From Escherichia coli (GTDB taxonomy: Bacteria > Pseudomonadota > Gammaproteobacteria > Enterobacterales > Enterobacteriaceae): a DNA stretch of 64,000 bases. Positions 43,271 through 64,000 of this stretch are shown piece after piece; positions within the stretch are counted from its first letter, which is position 1, and every line of letters begins with the position of its first letter. The DNA lies in assembly GCF_048403405.1 (NCBI RefSeq), contig NZ_CP183129.1, one strand, 5' to 3'. The position numbers were made by a program, and so were the translations under genes. The notes below the pieces were generated by a model. It saw nothing but the letters and a program-made list of their open reading frames with translations, was not told the origin of the DNA and made no database searches.

Positions 43271-44031
43271 GTGTTCCCCGCGCCAGCGGGGATAAACCGC
43301 GTTCAGCGTTGCTGGGCTGCGCAATGGACTGGTGTTCCCCGCGCCAGCGGGGATAAACCGCGGAGTTTTCACGGAACGCACAGCGAATTATGGTGTTCCC
43401 CGCGCCAGCGGGGATAAACCGCCGATAAATTTTCGCCCCGTTTCCAGCGCCGCGTGTTCCCCGCGCCAGCGGGGATAAACCGTTCAAACTGTAGGGATCG
43501 GCAATGGTGCCGAAGTGTTCCCCGCGCCAGCGGGGATAAACCGGGGCATTAGAATAACTTAAATGGAAAAAGAAAGTGTTCCCCGCGCCAGCGGGGATAA
43601 ACCGTCAGCCAGCACATAATTTTTATAGTCAGTATTGTGTTCCCCGCGCCAGCGGGGATAAACCGAAAGAGGTTATCGAGCGATATAACGCGTCCATGTG
43701 TTCCCCGCGCCAGCGGGGATAAACCGGTGCCTGGCGTCCATCTATTCACATGCCGCGCGTGTTCCCCGCGCCAGCGGGGATAAACCGTATTGGCGACGAT
43801 GGCATACCAGGACTACTCCGTGTTCCCCGCGCCAGCGGGGATAAACCGGCTCAGCGTCTGCTCTGGTGCCTCGCCCGTGAGTGTTCCCCGCGCCAGCGGG
43901 GATAAACCGGACCGTTACGGGCGCGTTCTTGGACTTGTTGAGTGTTCCCCACATCAGCGGGGATAAACCGGACACAGAGCGCCGCTATAGCGCCTATGCC
44001 AAGAGTTTCCCGCACCAGCGGGAATAAACCA
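43271..44031 (+). CRISPR. Type I-E CRISPR array: 13 repeats of 29 bp, 12 spacers of 32 bp (the queE-ygcE array of E. coli)
   Basis: Repeat GTGTTCCCCGCGCCAGCGGGGATAAACCG at 43271, 43332, 43393, 43454, 43515, 43576, 43637, 43698, 43759, 43820, 43881, then degenerate copies at 43942 (gtgttccccacatcagcggggataaaccg) and 44003 (gagtttcccgcaccagcgggaataaacca); exact 61-bp period. Confidence 0.97.
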
Positions 44032-44500
44032 CCATATAACCCGTTATCTCTTTCTCAAGTTTTTATATTAGCTGTACTTGTAATAAGCAACATATCCACG
44101 TAACACCTCATGTTCAAAATAGTTCTCCATGTCAGAGAAGTTCACAATTATCGATACAAAAAATTAAATTTAATCAAAGTGTTATTTGTATGATTCTTAA
44201 ATCGTTAAGAAATTTTAATCTATTATTTTTTTAATATTGAATTAATGCCTGTTAATTTTTTCTTTAGAATAACAGTGTGTTTTTTAAGCTTGTTATTCAT
44301 TGATTAAGTAATAAATCTGGAAGTTTGTCTTTGTTTTGAGGCTAATGAGTGGTTTTACATAACCGTCTCTATAGGCTGTTGATGAATAGTTCTTATGAAT
44401 AAAGATATCCAGTTCATACTTTAAATGAAAATTGATAAAGTACGGTTTGCGTTGTCTTTTATTCTAAAGACATCGAGTGTAGTTAATATTCCTTGTAAAA

Positions 44501-44623
44501 ACAGGGATAAACCGAACTAGTTAAAGTTTTTATTATGTTCCCTGCATCAGCGGGGATAAACCGGACTTGTTATCATTTTTTAAGTTGTCGAACTTATGTT
44601 CCCCACGTCAGCGGGGATAACCA
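44501..44623 (+). CRISPR. Decayed satellite CRISPR array (truncated repeat, two degenerate repeats, one 32-bp spacer)
   Basis: Partial repeat cagggataaaccg (ends 44514), degenerate repeats atgttccctgcatcagcggggataaaccg (44535-44563) and atgttccccacgtcagcggggataacc (44596-44623) separated by a 32-bp spacer; preceded by about 470 bp of AT-rich leader-like sequence. Confidence 0.8.
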
Positions 44624-59726: not shown

Positions 59727-60461
59727 ATGTCCAAACTCGATCTAAACGCCCTGAACGAACTGCCGAAGGTAGATCGCATTCTGGCGCTGGCGGAAACTAA
59801 CGCCGAACTGGAAAAACTGGACGCTGAAGGCCGCGTTGCTTGGGCGCTGGATAATCTGCCCGGTGAATATGTACTTTCTTCTAGCTTTGGCATTCAGGCG
59901 GCGGTGAGCCTGCATCTGGTGAATCATATTCGCCCGGATATTCCAGTGATCCTCACCGATACCGGTTATCTGTTCCCGGAAACCTACCGCTTTATTGACG
60001 AGTTAACGGACAAACTCAAGCTCAACCTGAAAGTGTACCGTGCTACCGAAAGCGCGGCCTGGCAGGAAGCACGCTACGGCAAACTGTGGGAACAGGGCGT
60101 TGAAGGCATTGAAAAGTACAATGACATCAACAAAGTCGAACCGATGAACCGGGCGCTGAAAGAACTTAACGCGCAAACCTGGTTTGCTGGCCTGCGCCGT
60201 GAACAATCCGGCAGCCGCGCCAATTTACCGGTGCTGGCAATTCAGCGTGGCGTATTTAAAGTGCTGCCGATTATCGACTGGGATAACCGAACTATTTATC
60301 AGTACCTGCAAAAACATGGCCTGAAATATCACCCATTATGGGACGAAGGATATTTATCGGTGGGCGATACCCATACAACCCGTAAATGGGAACCCGGCAT
60401 GGCGGAAGAAGAAACGCGTTTCTTTGGCTTAAAAAGGGAATGTGGGTTACACGAAGGGTAA
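59727..60461 (+). CDS. cysH: Phosphoadenosine phosphosulfate (PAPS) reductase
   Basis: 244 aa [36 protein letters not shown]...; the track ORF begins upstream inside the REP / cysI 3' end. Confidence 0.96.
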
Positions 60462-60479
60462 ATATTGCCGGATAAATTA

Positions 60480-60517
60480 AACGCCTCTGTCAGAAATGAT
60501 GGGGGCGTTTTTATTTT
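60480..60517 (+). terminator. Candidate cysH intrinsic terminator
   Basis: aacgcc...ggcgtt stem with a long loop followed by tttttatttt. Confidence 0.4.
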
Positions 60518-60725
60518 GCGAGCAGCATTCCGGCATTTAAAGGTGAACATCGCAGGGAGAATTAACAGGTATAGAATGGAGTTGGGTGCTTGAGGCTGTC
60601 TGGCGTTAAGCATTCGCGAGGTTCCAGATGGACAAAAGCCCCAGGCGATATTTCTATCAACCTGAGGCCAGCGTTCGAACCTAAGCAATTCGAATGTTAG
60701 TCTCTTCTTTGCAGGGAGGCAAGAC

Positions 60726-60878
60726 ATGCTGACAAAATATGCCCTTGTGGCAATCATCGTACTGTGTTGTACAGTACTGGGATTCACGCTGATGGTAGGC
60801 GACTCGTTGTGTGAGTTGAGTATCAGAGAACGTGGTATGGAGTTTAAGGCAGTTCTCGCTTACGAATCGAAGAAGTAG
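60726..60878 (+). CDS. Hok-family type I toxin (50-aa small membrane protein), part of a hok/sok-like locus
   Basis: [53 protein letters not shown]: N-terminal TM helix plus conserved Hok motif DSLCE...R...[11 protein letters not shown]; below the 60-aa cutoff of the ORF track; followed by hairpin cgcgggg gtaaaa ccccgcg (60885-60904) and a T run; K-12 carries a hok/sok-type locus (sokX) at this position. Confidence 0.8.
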
Positions 60879-61115
60879 CCACCACGCGGGGGTAAAACCC
60901 CGCGTATTGGATTGTGATGGTTTGGTCTCCTGCACCCTTTTTTAATTTATATTGTTTATGTAAATATTATGCCTATGTTTATTATTCATATATATTACGG
61001 ATGAAAATTATTTGATTATTCATAATGTAAATATTTTATTGAACGATATATATCACAGATAATTTTTAATATATGCGTAAATATCCTTTAAGTTTTACTG
61101 AAGGATAAAAACATT

Positions 61116-63773
61116 GTGACTTTCTTTGATTTCTGGGGAAAAACCCGACGTGGCGAGAAAGAGGGTGGTGACGACTATCACCTTCTTTGCTGGCATTCGC
61201 TGGATGTAGCCGCGATGGGCTATTTAATGGTTAAAAGCAATTGCTTCGGGCTGGCTGACTATTTTCGTCAACTAGGTTTCGCTGATACGGAGCAGGCAGC
61301 ACAATTTTTCGCCTGGTTGCTGTGCTGGCACGATACTGGAAAATTTGCCCGCTCTTTTCAGCAACTTTACCTGCACCCGCAACTCAAGGTTCCGGAAAGC
61401 TCTAGAAAAAATTACGAAAAAATCTCTCATTCAACGCTGGGTTACTGGTTGTGGCACCATTATTTAAGTGAATGCGAAGAATTGCTTCCTTCATCTTCAC
61501 TCTCTCCGCGCAAACTTAAACGGGTGATAGAGATGTGGATGCCCATGACTACCGGGCATCATGGTCGCCCGCCTGACCGTATGGATGAACTGGATAATTT
61601 TCTGCCTGAAGACAAAGCCGCCGCGCGAGATTTTCTCCTTGTAATCAAGGCACTGTTTCCTCTCATCGAGATCCCCGCATTCTGGGATGATGACGATGGC
61701 GTTGAACTTTTAAAACAACTTTCCTGGTATATCTCTGCAACTGTCGTACTTGCAGACTGGACGGGATCGTCAACGCGATTTTTTCCACGCGTCGCGCAGG
61801 CAATGGATATTGAAGATTACTGGCAGAAGGCTTTAGTTCAGGCTCAAAACGCATTAACCGTCTTTCCTCCAAAAGCACAAACCGCGCCTTTCACCGGAAT
61901 TAATACGCTGTTTCCTTTTATTGAGCACCCGACACCGTTACAGCAAAAGGTGCTGGATCTGGATATCAGCCAGCCTGGGCCACAGTTATTTATTCTGGAG
62001 GATGTGACTGGCGCAGGTAAAACAGAAGCGGCGCTTATCCTGGCCCACAGGTTGATGGCTGCGGGGAAAGCACAGGGTTTGTTTTTTGGCCTGCCAACAA
62101 TGGCAACGGCCAATGCCATGTACGATCGGCTGGTAAAAACCTGGCTTGCTTTCTATTCGCCAGAATCCCGCCCCAGCCTGGTGCTGGCACACAGTGCCCG
62201 CACATTAATGGACCGCTTTAATGAATCACTCTGGTCCGGTGATTTAGTCGGGTCAGAAGAACCGGATGAACAAGCGTTCAGTCAGGGATGTGCGGCCTGG
62301 TTTGCCGACAGTAACAAGAAGGCGTTGCTGGCTGAAATTGGCGTCGGCACGCTGGATCAGGCGATGATGGCGGTGATGCCGTTTAAACATAATAATCTGC
62401 GGCTTCTGGGACTGAGTAACAAAATCCTGCTGGCTGATGAGATCCATGCCTGTGACGCTTACATGTCGTGCATTCTTGAAGGATTGATTGAGCGGCAGGC
62501 GCGTGGCGGAAACAGCGTTATTTTGCTTTCTGCCACGTTATCTCAACAGCAGCGCGACAAACTCGTTGCTGCCTTTGCGCGTGGTGCAGAGGGTCAGCAA
62601 GAAGCTCCGTTCCTGGAAAAGGATGATTACCCCTGGCTGACGCACGTTACGAAATCGGATGTGCATTCACACCGGGTAGCAACGCGCAAAGACGTTGAGC
62701 GTAGCGTGAGCGTGGGTTGGCTTCATAGCGAACAAGAGTGTATTGCGCGTATCGAATCGGCGGTAAGTCAGGGGAAATGCATCGCCTGGATCCGGAATTC
62801 TGTCGATGATGCTATTAAAGTTCATCGTCAGTTGCTTGCCCGCGGCGTCATTCCTGCTTCCAGCCTTTCTCTGTTTCATAGCCGCTTTGCTTTTAGCGAT
62901 CGCCAGCGAATTGAAACGGAAACGCTGGCACGCTTCGGTAAAGAAGATAGCTCACAGCGTGCCGGAAAAGTCCTCATTTGTACTCAGGTCTTAGAGTCGA
63001 GCGTTGATTGCGATATGGACGAAATGATTTCCGACCTGGCCCCTGTTGATTTGCTGATCCAGCGAGCGGGGCGATTACAGCGGCATATCCGCGATATTAA
63101 TGGTCAGTTAAAGCGTGACGGAAAAGACGAGCGTTCTCCTCCTGAATTGCTGATTCTGGCCCCCGTCTGGGACGACGCTCCAGGTGACGAATGGTTCGGC
63201 AGTGCCATGCGTAACAGTGCATATGTCTATCCCGATCATGGACGAATCTGGCTGACGCAGCGTGTACTGCGTGAGCAAGGCGCGATTCAAATGCCACACG
63301 CAGCCCGCCTTCTTATTGAATCAGTCTACGGTGAGGACGTGGTAATGCCGGAAGGATTTGCCCGCAGCGAGCAGGAACAAGTGGGCAAATATTACTGCGA
63401 TCGCGCAATGGCTAAAAAGTTTGTGCTGAACTTCAGGCCCGGCTATGCCGCCAATATCAACGATTACCTCCCGGAAAAGCTGTCGACACGTCTGGCTGAG
63501 GAGTCTGTTTCCCTGTGGCTGGCTACCTGTATTGACGGTGTGGTGAAGCCTTATGCCACCGGTGCTCACGCATGGGAAATGAGCGTTGTCAGAGTGCGTC
63601 GAAGCTGGTGGAAAAAACATTGCGATGAGTTTTCTTTACTGGAAGGGGAAGCGTTCAGGCAGTGGTGCGTTGAACAGCGGCAAGATCCGGAGATGGCAAA
63701 TGTGATTTTAGTTACCGATGACGAAAGTTGCGGGTATTCGGCTAGGGAGGGATTGATTGGTAAGGTTGATTGA
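61116..63773 (+). CDS. cas3: Cas3 (type I-E CRISPR-associated HD nuclease / SF2 helicase), non-K-12 allele
   Basis: 885 aa; HD motifs (HSLDVAA, WHDTGKF), helicase motif I TGAGKTEA, motif II DEIH, motif III SATL, motif VI QRAGRLQRH; GTG start; sits directly downstream of cysH as in E. coli; N-terminal sequence differs from the K-12 Cas3 I recall (MEPFKYICHYWGKS...). Confidence 0.9.
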   Translation: MTFFDFWGKTRRGEKEGGDDYHLLCWHSLDVAAMGYLMVKSNCFGLADYFRQLGFADTEQAAQFFAWLLCWHDTGKFARSFQQLYLHPQLKVPESSRKNYEKISHSTLGYWLWHHYLSECEELLPSSSLSPRKLKRVIEMWMPMTTGHHGRPPDRMDELDNFLPEDKAAARDFLLVIKALFPLIEIPAFWDDDDGVELLKQLSWYISATVVLADWTGSSTRFFPRVAQAMDIEDYWQKALVQAQNALTVFPPKAQTAPFTGINTLFPFIEHPTPLQQKVLDLDISQPGPQLFILEDVTGAGKTEAALILAHRLMAAGKAQGLFFGLPTMATANAMYDRLVKTWLAFYSPESRPSLVLAHSARTLMDRFNESLWSGDLVGSEEPDEQAFSQGCAAWFADSNKKALLAEIGVGTLDQAMMAVMPFKHNNLRLLGLSNKILLADEIHACDAYMSCILEGLIERQARGGNSVILLSATLSQQQRDKLVAAFARGAEGQQEAPFLEKDDYPWLTHVTKSDVHSHRVATRKDVERSVSVGWLHSEQECIARIESAVSQGKCIAWIRNSVDDAIKVHRQLLARGVIPASSLSLFHSRFAFSDRQRIETETLARFGKEDSSQRAGKVLICTQVLESSVDCDMDEMISDLAPVDLLIQRAGRLQRHIRDINGQLKRDGKDERSPPELLILAPVWDDAPGDEWFGSAMRNSAYVYPDHGRIWLTQRVLREQGAIQMPHAARLLIESVYGEDVVMPEGFARSEQEQVGKYYCDRAMAKKFVLNFRPGYAANINDYLPEKLSTRLAEESVSLWLATCIDGVVKPYATGAHAWEMSVVRVRRSWWKKHCDEFSLLEGEAFRQWCVEQRQDPEMANVILVTDDESCGYSAREGLIGKVD

Positions 63774-63777
63774 GATG

Positions 63778-63801
63778 CCCTGGAGTCGGAGGACTCCAGG
63801 G
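63778..63801 (+). other. GC-rich hairpin 5 nt after the cas3 stop codon
   Basis: ccctggagtc ggag gactccaggg, 10-bp perfect stem with 4-nt loop, no following U run. Confidence 0.6.
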
Positions 63802-63889
63802 CCTATCCCCGCTGACGCGGGGAACGGAATAACAGAGTAACAGGAGCTACCTCTTACTGCTGGTTTATCCCTACGTTAATAGGGAAGAA
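63799..63889 (-). repeat. Two degenerate CRISPR-repeat-like units in inverted orientation, 62 bp apart
   Basis: gggcctatccccgctgacgcggggaacgg (63799-63827) matches the reverse complement of the array repeat at 24 of 29 positions with the stem-loop preserved; ctggtttatccctacgttaatagggaaga (63861-63889) matches at 17 of 29, concentrated at both ends; spacing close to the 61-bp array period. Confidence 0.5.
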
Positions 63890-64000
63890 GGGAGTATAGC
63901 ATCTACTGAGATGAATTTGTTTTGATATTTAATGTGAACTTCCTCTTACTGCCTTTACATTTTTCTATGCGAGGAGTAATCTTTGCTCAGTTTGGGAGAG

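Follow-up and report, generated by a model that had tools for sequence, protein, structure and literature searches.

The cas3 locus and its left neighbour

The window (the whole stretch of Escherichia coli DNA that was analysed, 64 kb in length) contains a cas3 gene of the cas-E1 variant near its right end. The order of the locus is cysH, sok/hok, an AT-rich intergenic block and cas3, and cysJ, cysI and cysH lie upstream. E. coli TUM14771 matches the 1 kb at 60400-61400 with 100% identity. The genes and the features at the left side of the block are as follows.

60584-60741, + strand: 5' part of the hok mRNA and sok antisense region (Rfam RF01794 sok, 111.7 bits with a gathering score of 59, E=3.5e-26)
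60726-60878, + strand: hok toxin ORF, 50 aa (ORF list; Pfam HOK_GEF, E=5.7e-10)
60879-60945, + strand: 3' UTR of the hok mRNA, or IG3, the left limit of the block (MFE fold and strain comparison)
60885-60904, + strand: local hairpin within the hok 3' UTR
60924-60937, + strand: 3' segment GGTCTCCTGCACCC of the hok 3' UTR, which pairs with the 5' end of the mRNA (MFE fold)
60938-60943, + strand: T-run at the end of the hok mRNA
61116-63773, + strand: cas3, cas-E1 variant, GTG start, 885 aa, intact ORF (ORF list and Pfam)

The ORF at 61116-63773 is a type I-E Cas3, with an HD nuclease, a helicase core, a C-terminal domain and casA nearby. The Cas3_HD profile (E=4.5e-33) matches from residue 7 of the GTG form, and Cas3-like_C_2 was also found (E=6.1e-33). 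The match to the DEAD helicase family is weak (25.4 bits with a cut-off of 26), and no stretch passes alone. In the identical genome of TUM14771, casA is located downstream of cas3, and the product of the hok ORF is annotated as Hok/Gef (WP_000956458.1). An earlier note on this DNA had placed the block between a hok-like locus on the left and cas3 on the right. The sok family match, the Hok/Gef ORF and the Cas3 domains all back this assignment.

The left limit of the block can be set from the hok mRNA. When 60584-60945 is folded, the MFE structure pairs GGGUGCUUGAGGCU, which forms the first 14 nt of the mRNA, with GGUCUCCUGCACCC at 60924-60937. Nucleotides 1-6 pair with 60932-60937, nucleotides 9-14 pair with 60924-60929, and six U come next. 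We take this to be the 5'-3' pairing that is known for hok mRNAs. Since the pairing reaches 60937 and is followed by six U, the hok transcript appears to end at about 60943 and the block starts directly after it. The six T at 60938-60943 thus still belong to the hok mRNA, at its 3' end, and the block proper covers about 60946-61115. Strains that do not have cas-E1 resemble the window only as far as about 60945.

Composition, distribution and conservation of the block

The earlier note claimed approximately 170 bp of extremely AT-rich DNA upstream of cas3. This tract is real and the letters quoted for it are present. Positions 60945-61115 (171 bp) have a G+C content of 18.1%, compared with 50.7% in the whole window. 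No 171-bp frame of the window has a G+C content below 17.5%, a value found only at 60938 and 44146, and the 0.1 percentile of such frames is 19.9%. The AT-rich segment reaches its greatest extent at 60938-61132 (195 bp, G+C 18.5%) and ranks second in the window behind the CRISPR-II inter-array tract at 44146-44536. TpA steps make up 18.3% of the dinucleotides in the block, compared with a window mean of 4.6%, and this density, the highest in the window, places it in the top 0.03% of frames. The block is therefore an AT-rich, TpA-rich tract of at least 100 bp, as is looked for in an H-NS-silenced promoter region. The DNA on either side of this short patch has a G+C content of about 47-50%, and it is possible that such flanks limit the formation of an H-NS filament.

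A number of other possible elements were explored. The Rfam search of the block gave no match at E<=1, and the scan of the block for the IHF consensus gave no site. The A/T tracts at 61004, 61034, 61063 and 61093 are spaced by approximately 30 bp and produce no net bend in a wedge model. Two small ORFs of 33 aa each, 60914-61015 (+) and 61095-61196 (-), are broken by indels in O157 and were treated as spurious. The sequence GTAAATAT was considered as a motif of the block and is present in three copies, yet it is not kept between strains. A decayed CRISPR leader and a homologue of the K-12 IG5 or cas3-casA regions were also considered and rejected, since blastn (word size 7) gave no score above 24.7 bits and shuffled sequence averaged 24.8 bits.

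The block is IG4, the region upstream of cas3 that is specific to the cas-E1 type I-E variant of E. coli. In the CRISPR-I locus between iap and cysH, IG4 was described as the region that separates hok/sok and IG3 from cas3, with cas-E1 as its constant partner (Almendros et al., 2014, mBio, PMC3903273). The two are alike in being found with cas-E1 only and in being absent from cas-E2 strains and from cas-less strains. In PMC3903273, IG4 served as an evolutionary marker only, and no promoter, start site, composition or regulator was assigned to it. IG4 is thus already known as a marker and is uncharacterised as a regulatory element.

The linkage is also seen in complete genomes. The cysH flank is common to 5425 of 5426 complete E. 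coli genomes, and the block together with this cas3 5' end is present in 2775 of the 5426. It is always chromosomal, it is nearly always single copy (2782 places in the 2775 genomes), and it always adjoins a cas3 of this type. In other arrangements the similarity to the window is lost at about 60945, and in K-12-like strains it is lost at 60728. In strain 63-2, for example, CACCCTTTTTTAA is followed directly by the 3' end of another type of cas3 in inverted orientation. The K-12-like genome does not contain the hok ORF, and its cas3 is preceded by an unrelated region of 91 bp with a G+C content of 34%. Its Cas3 is 29% identical to the Cas3 found here. AT-rich DNA upstream of cas3 (G+C 18-33% over 170 bp) is found in eight of ten related loci.

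An alignment of the window with eight relatives, in which cas3 was compared over its first 1200 nt, divides the block into two parts.

60946-61045, no strand: distal part, hypervariable and TpA-rich (52-98% identity among cas-E1 strains, G+C about 18%)
61046-61115, + strand: proximal part, conserved, with the core cas3 promoter and the 5' UTR (95.7-100% identity among E. coli cas-E1 strains)

In Escherichia sp. MOD1-EC7003, 39 bp of the distal part are deleted. Identity among cas-E1 strains is 92-95% over the first 1200 nt of cas3 and 84-90% at its third-codon positions. By this measure, the proximal 70 bp are more constrained than the synonymous sites of cas3. Between this strain and EDL933, the proximal region is 95.7% identical with three differing positions, one of them in the T-run. 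In Escherichia albertii, cas3 is 91% identical and the upstream DNA has been largely replaced. It is still AT-rich there and keeps the short islands TCACAGA and TGC-TAAA. The site of the published primer cas3E1-R falls in the consensus of the aligned strains.

The cas3 promoter and start codon

The features that could control the expression of cas3 are located in or at the edge of the proximal part.

61044-61057, + strand: CRP-like candidate CGA-N6-TCACA, centre -42.5, a putative activator site judged from alignments and context
61056-61061, + strand: best -35 candidate CAGATA at 17-bp spacing, 3 of 6 (placed relative to the transcription start)
61073-61075, + strand: cas3 ATG of RefSeq/PGAP, rejected as start codon (19 nt upstream of the mapped transcription start and out of frame in the window)
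61079-61084, + strand: putative -10 AAATAT (-13 to -8), 3 of 6 (placed relative to the transcription start)
61092, + strand: cas3 transcription start, equivalent of EDL933 3694696 (Cappable-seq transfer; the G of CCTTTAA[G]TTT)
61093-61096, + strand: T-run polymorphism in the 5' UTR, TTTT here and TTT in most strains (alignment)
61101-61105, + strand: Shine-Dalgarno sequence AAGGA, 10 nt before the GTG

The transcription start comes from published data on a close relative. Cappable-seq of O157:H7 EDL933 was carried out in eight conditions in triplicate, with NZ_CP008957 as the reference (PMC10469882). Among the starts listed in Table S5 of that study, one gTSS, 3694696 on the minus strand, is assigned to "CRISPR-associated helicase/endonuclease Cas3". 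It appeared in the stationary samples from LB, M9, acid and salt, whereas all four exponential samples lacked it (PMC10469882). In NZ_CP008957, cas3 is annotated at 3692016-3694715, and the start is thus located 19 nt downstream of the annotated ATG. The equivalent position here is 61092, which leaves a leader of 24 nt to the cas3 GTG that includes AAGGA.

The earlier note had suggested that this block is the control point for cas3 expression. This agrees with its position as the sole non-coding space between the end of the hok transcript and cas3, with the conservation of the proximal part and with the start equivalent at 61092. It is very probable that the block contains the cas3 promoter. 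Constitutive cas3 transcription had been named as an outcome that would speak against silencing. In EDL933 transcription of cas3 starts in stationary phase only and is thus not constitutive.

The core cas3 promoter appears to be a weak one, judging from its hexamers. The consensus promoter scan found no site in the block, and a PWM scan gave numerous sigma-70-like hexamer pairs on the two strands, all of them weak. The weak hexamers upstream of 61092 agree with both of these results. A possible activator site is found at TCACA. The right half (61053-57) is perfect and conserved, and the TCACAGA core is also kept in E. albertii. The left half reads AACGA in the window and GCTGA in O157. The site as a whole is TGA-N6-TCACA in O157 and HB-Coli0, at a CRP-like position, and CGA-N6-TCACA in the window. 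Its centre at -42.5 is near the class II CRP position, for which -41.5 is canonical. The core in the window has one mismatch, and such cores are not above chance (69 in the window, 47 expected). The CRP-like site is therefore put forward as a candidate only.

The annotation of cas3 in public genomes does not begin at the GTG. PGAP calls a Cas3 of 899 aa from the ATG equivalent to 61073 in O157, HB-Coli0, ET245, SE11 and Sakai, and it labels cas3 as "frameshifted" in TUM14771 and FCI1. This label arises because the T-run is TTTT instead of TTT. In ten loci that belong to other species or to divergent lineages, cas3 begins at the equivalent of the GTG, as GTG, TTG or ATG. Among these are E. albertii, Intestinirhabdus, Citrobacter, Salmonella diarizonae, two Klebsiella and Phytobacter. 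In each of the ten, a purine run that resembles a Shine-Dalgarno sequence is located 6-10 nt upstream of the start, and no conserved in-frame extension upstream of the GTG equivalent was found in them. Purine-rich motifs are present at the Shine-Dalgarno position in the loci of nine other species. The starts of the homologues, the Cas3_HD match from residue 7 and the transcription start downstream of the ATG together identify the GTG at 61116 as the true start. This strain most probably has an intact cas3 and a wholly non-coding block. The "frameshifted" call for this strain is probably an artefact, given that transcription starts downstream of the RefSeq ATG.

This correction of the start codon is a practical by-product of the analysis. 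The RefSeq start is 43 nt too far upstream, and a cas3 of the TTTT type is most probably flagged wrongly as a pseudogene. Surveys that count "intact" and "degraded" CRISPR-Cas systems from the RefSeq annotation will misclassify strains like this one. The RefSeq label "Cas3'" is not specific to pseudogenes and cannot be used to count the TTTT form.

H-NS and the proposed control of cas3

H-NS prefers DNA of such composition and TpA content, and AT-rich DNA that was acquired horizontally is usually coated by it. A high-affinity nucleation motif for H-NS, TCGATAAATT, was reportedly defined by Lang et al. in 2007. The block contains no match to this motif with 0 or 1 mismatches, and a single match with two mismatches is found at 61033-61042 on the minus strand. 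Curvature prediction had been proposed as a check on H-NS binding, and none is predicted for the block. In the wedge model, whose result is indicative only, the end-to-end ratio is 0.957-0.977, and the block thus ranks at the 45th-84th percentile of the window. The same model gives ratios down to 0.68 for strongly curved segments that occur elsewhere in the window.

The earlier note relied on H-NS silencing of cas promoters in K-12. H-NS does repress K-12 cas3 in stationary phase, but the DNA involved is not homologous to the block, and the analogy is a functional one only. The repression is 8-fold and limited to stationary phase (PMC4782391), and deletion of hns barely changes cas3 in exponential phase (PMC4782391; PMC7019758). 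The region directly upstream of K-12 cas3, IG5, occupies the same position in the cas-E2 locus as the block does here. It serves an independent transcription unit that responds to growth phase and is activated by CRP (PMC7019758, PMC4782391). However, IG5 is 91 bp long with a G+C content of 34%, while the block is approximately 170 bp long with a G+C content of 18%. K-12 also differs in the missing hok ORF and in the low identity of its Cas3 given above. The K-12 region between cas3 and casA (Pcas and anti-Pcas) is silenced by H-NS and relieved by LeuO, according to Pul 2010 and Westra 2010 as reported in PMC4782391 and PMC8616872. Like the block, it is AT-rich DNA of a type I-E locus (G+C 29.5%, 414 bp), and it is the established example of an H-NS-coated cas promoter. 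It controls casABCDE12 and not cas3, however, and it is not homologous to the block. Binding of H-NS and LeuO to that region is shown by experiment, whereas binding of H-NS to the block is a prediction.

Two other systems can be compared. In Salmonella Typhi, cas3 is repressed by H-NS, as related in PMC8039139 citing Medina-Aparicio 2017. It is independently transcribed and described in that account as divergent from the cas operon. The member of the species that was compared in place of S. Typhi, Salmonella enterica subsp. diarizonae, has a Cas3 that is 70% identical to the Cas3 here, far closer than that of K-12. Its upstream 170 bp have a G+C content of 26%, and this sequence is not conserved with E. 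coli. In Klebsiella pneumoniae NTUH-K2044, cas3 mRNA goes up in an hns mutant and down when hns is induced (PMC4987720). This is another species and another locus. We propose that the block functions like the K-12 cas3 promoter region and like the H-NS-silenced cas promoters of K-12 and Salmonella, although it shares no homology with them.

Binding data for the neighbouring genes are available from H-NS ChAP-seq of E. coli K-12 W3110, SE11 and SE15 (PMC4720273). In that study cysH was scored as bound, with cysI and cysJ unbound, and the binding of cysH goes beyond its 3' tip alone (PMC4720273). SE11 carries cas-E1, hok and the block, but the score of cysH means "bound in at least one of three strains" and is not assignable to the cas-E1 strain. 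The interval from hok to cas3 corresponds to NC_011415 3125048-3125242 in SE11 and to NC_002695 3607216-3607408 in Sakai. The gene beside the other extreme AT tract, ygcE, was scored as bound, and ppnN/ygdH, beside a milder tract, as unbound (PMC4720273). The searched literature contained no H-NS occupancy or hns-mutant data for the block or for any cas-E1 strain, and no studies of cas-E1 regulation. A paper on H-NS ChIP-chip in O157 Sakai gives no region list, a Nissle preprint concerns the K-12 system and not cas-E1, and a STEC transcriptome paper gives cas genes with cas3 absent among them. Control of the block by H-NS is plausible in view of its composition, the repression of cas3 in K-12, S. 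Typhi and K. pneumoniae, and the binding of cysH. That H-NS both binds and represses the block appears slightly more probable than the opposite.

From these observations, cas3 is reasonably likely to be served by a weak stationary-phase promoter within an H-NS-coated AT patch. The proximal part, 61046-61115, would provide this promoter, with the start at the equivalent position 61092 and a 24-nt leader that holds the ribosome-binding site. Because the promoter is active only in stationary phase in a close relative, it should need an activator or an alternative sigma factor. The distal part, 60946-61045, is fast-evolving, TpA-rich DNA that would recruit H-NS (and StpA), and it could possibly serve as UP-like upstream DNA as well. 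A coat of H-NS over the patch of approximately 180 bp would extend across the -35/-10 region and hold cas3 transcription at a low level. In stationary phase, an activator, for which CRP-cAMP or sigma-S can be suggested, would overcome the silencing. Wild-type EDL933 transcribes cas3 detectably in stationary phase, and any silencing must therefore be incomplete.

Much of the evidence could also be read with H-NS playing no significant part. The weak cas3 promoter would then depend on an activator and on growth-phase control, through cAMP-CRP at TCACA or through sigma-S, and its AT-richness would be promoter or UP-element sequence together with the relaxed composition of non-coding, horizontally acquired DNA. 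The start that is seen in stationary phase only, across four media, agrees with this, as do the weak -35 and -10 hexamers and the absence of the H-NS motif and of predicted curvature. The CRP-like TGA-N6-TCACA of O157 and HB-Coli0 sits close to a class II position, CRP activates the non-homologous K-12 cas3 promoter, and deletion of hns raises K-12 cas3 only slightly (PMC7019758). However, the left half-site is CGA in the window, a one-mismatch form that is common by chance, and the centre is displaced from the canonical position. A G+C content of 18% with extreme TpA content over approximately 180 bp is the composition that H-NS prefers, and cas3 is repressed by H-NS in three related systems. 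We regard control by an activator alone as unlikely, though still a serious contender, and it is compatible with silencing by H-NS.

The remaining explanations deny the block a role in a working gene. It might be a functionless junction or scar of cas-module exchange, either an AT-rich hotspot of recombination or insertion or a decayed CRISPR leader. The block is indeed found at the exact breakpoint between cas-E1, cas-E2, the third inverted cas3 variant and cas-less strains, its distal half is hypervariable with indels, and IS421 adjoins it in ET245. That IS421 is in the hok 3' UTR, outside the block, however, and similarity to the CRISPR-II leader, the inter-array tracts and the K-12 intergenic regions is at the level of shuffled controls. 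With the proximal 70 bp constrained beyond synonymous sites and a start equivalent inside them, a scar is quite improbable. Hardly credible is the case in which 61073-61115 (approximately 43 bp) codes for Cas3 from the ATG at 61073, so that TTTT turns cas3 into a pseudogene and the block controls nothing functional. It would account for the 899-aa calls in five strains and the "frameshifted" calls in TUM14771 and FCI1. The sole cas3 start among those listed for EDL933 is located downstream of that ATG, however, and the ATG has no Shine-Dalgarno sequence, while AAGGA precedes the GTG. Nine other species start at the GTG equivalent, with the extension closed by stops or unconserved, and the Cas3_HD profile fits the GTG form. 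Besides this strain, FCI1, Escherichia sp. MOD1-EC7003 and one further contig combine TTTT with an intact ORF of 885 aa.

A weak stationary-phase promoter in an H-NS-coated patch, the reading preferred here, would make the block a largely ordinary finding, an expected kind of H-NS target for which binding is predicted. A more specific version can be considered, although it is doubtful. The block could be a stationary-phase switch, in which a weak core promoter is activated at the CRP-like TCACA within a short H-NS-bound patch, and the hypervariable distal half tunes the silencing of Cas3 among lineages. If this is true, the distal half would set the threshold of each lineage for CRISPR interference and for the risk of self-targeting. 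In K-12, the level of Cas3 limits interference. Roughly half of the E. coli that have been sequenced carry the cas-E1 module, O157:H7 and many B1 strains among them, and nearly all of the regulatory work concerns the non-homologous cas-E2 locus of K-12. The location of the promoter, the stationary-only start in EDL933 and the H-NS-type DNA now give a concrete construct with which to determine if the natural CRISPR-Cas system of E. coli is silent.

Start codon of cas3

The RefSeq/PGAP annotation starts the cas3 gene of cas-E1, the type I-E variant of this strain, at an ATG that lies 43 nt 5' of the likely true GTG (window 61073-61116; also in the compared loci L001 and L004). Strains in which cas3 is called "frameshifted" (TUM14771 and FCI1) have TTTT in place of TTT at 61093-61096, and they receive this call because the gene is started at the upstream ATG. 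The mapped start site (the EDL933 Cappable-seq cas3 TSS, equivalent to 61092) and the starts in other species indicate that the "frameshifted" cas3 is an annotation artefact.

Contigs labeled as a "Collinsella sp." MAG and as "Pseudocitrobacter vendiensis" (L016 and L017) encode stretches of Cas3 with 94-96% identity to the E. coli protein of this window. In the latter, the proximal 70 bp of the AT-rich block upstream of cas3 are also 100% identical. These sequence identities suggest contamination or very recent transfer.

Repeats and insertions at the AT-rich regions

Three of the four copies of GTAAATAT in the 64 kb are found within the block (60960, 61027, and 61077), where they belong to longer imperfect direct repeats (D1 and D2). 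Strain comparison shows no conservation of these copies. Along the proximal half of the block, A/T runs 4-5 nt long recur at intervals of 29-30 bp (61004, 61034, 61063, and 61093), and no net bend is predicted from them by the wedge model. In E. coli ET245 (L007 2335-3446), an IS421-family element within the hok 3' UTR, just 5' of the block, separates hok from cas3 and leaves the block intact.

Besides the block, the window has one more compositional extreme, the AT-rich tract at 44030-44536 (27% G+C), which lies between the two repeat sets of the CRISPR-II locus. The neighboring gene ygcE was scored as H-NS-bound in ChAP-seq.

CRISPR-II features
43273-44622, minus strand, CRISPR-II locus
43273-44029, minus strand, 13 repeats
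44537-44622, minus strand, 2 repeats

The cas3-casA spacer and a third Cas3 type

The spacer between cas3 and casA is 466 nt in this strain vs 97 nt in O157, HB-Coli0, and FCI1. Within it are two CRISPR-repeat-like units, both degenerate and inverted.

Spacer features
63774-64000, continuing in L001 7375-7839, cas3-casA spacer
63778-63801, strong hairpin directly 3' of the cas3 stop
63801-63825, inverted degenerate repeat-like unit, GCCTATCCCCGCTGACGCGGGGAAC
63862-63887, inverted degenerate repeat-like unit, GGTTTATCCCTACGTTAATAGGGAAG

E. coli strain 63-2 (L002 4543-7849) possesses a third Cas3 type of 899 aa, with 45% identity to the window Cas3 and 30% to that of K-12. Its cas3 is inverted, directly adjoins the hok 3' end without an AT block, and is divergent from casA, and the 610-bp region between the two genes carries repeat-like units as well (TTATCCCCGCTGACGCGGGGAAC).

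The CasA protein of the window strain is different from the common cas-E1 CasA (WP_000283634). The module with the long spacer may be the recombinant "B171-type" Cascade module (Almendros 2014; PMC3903273).
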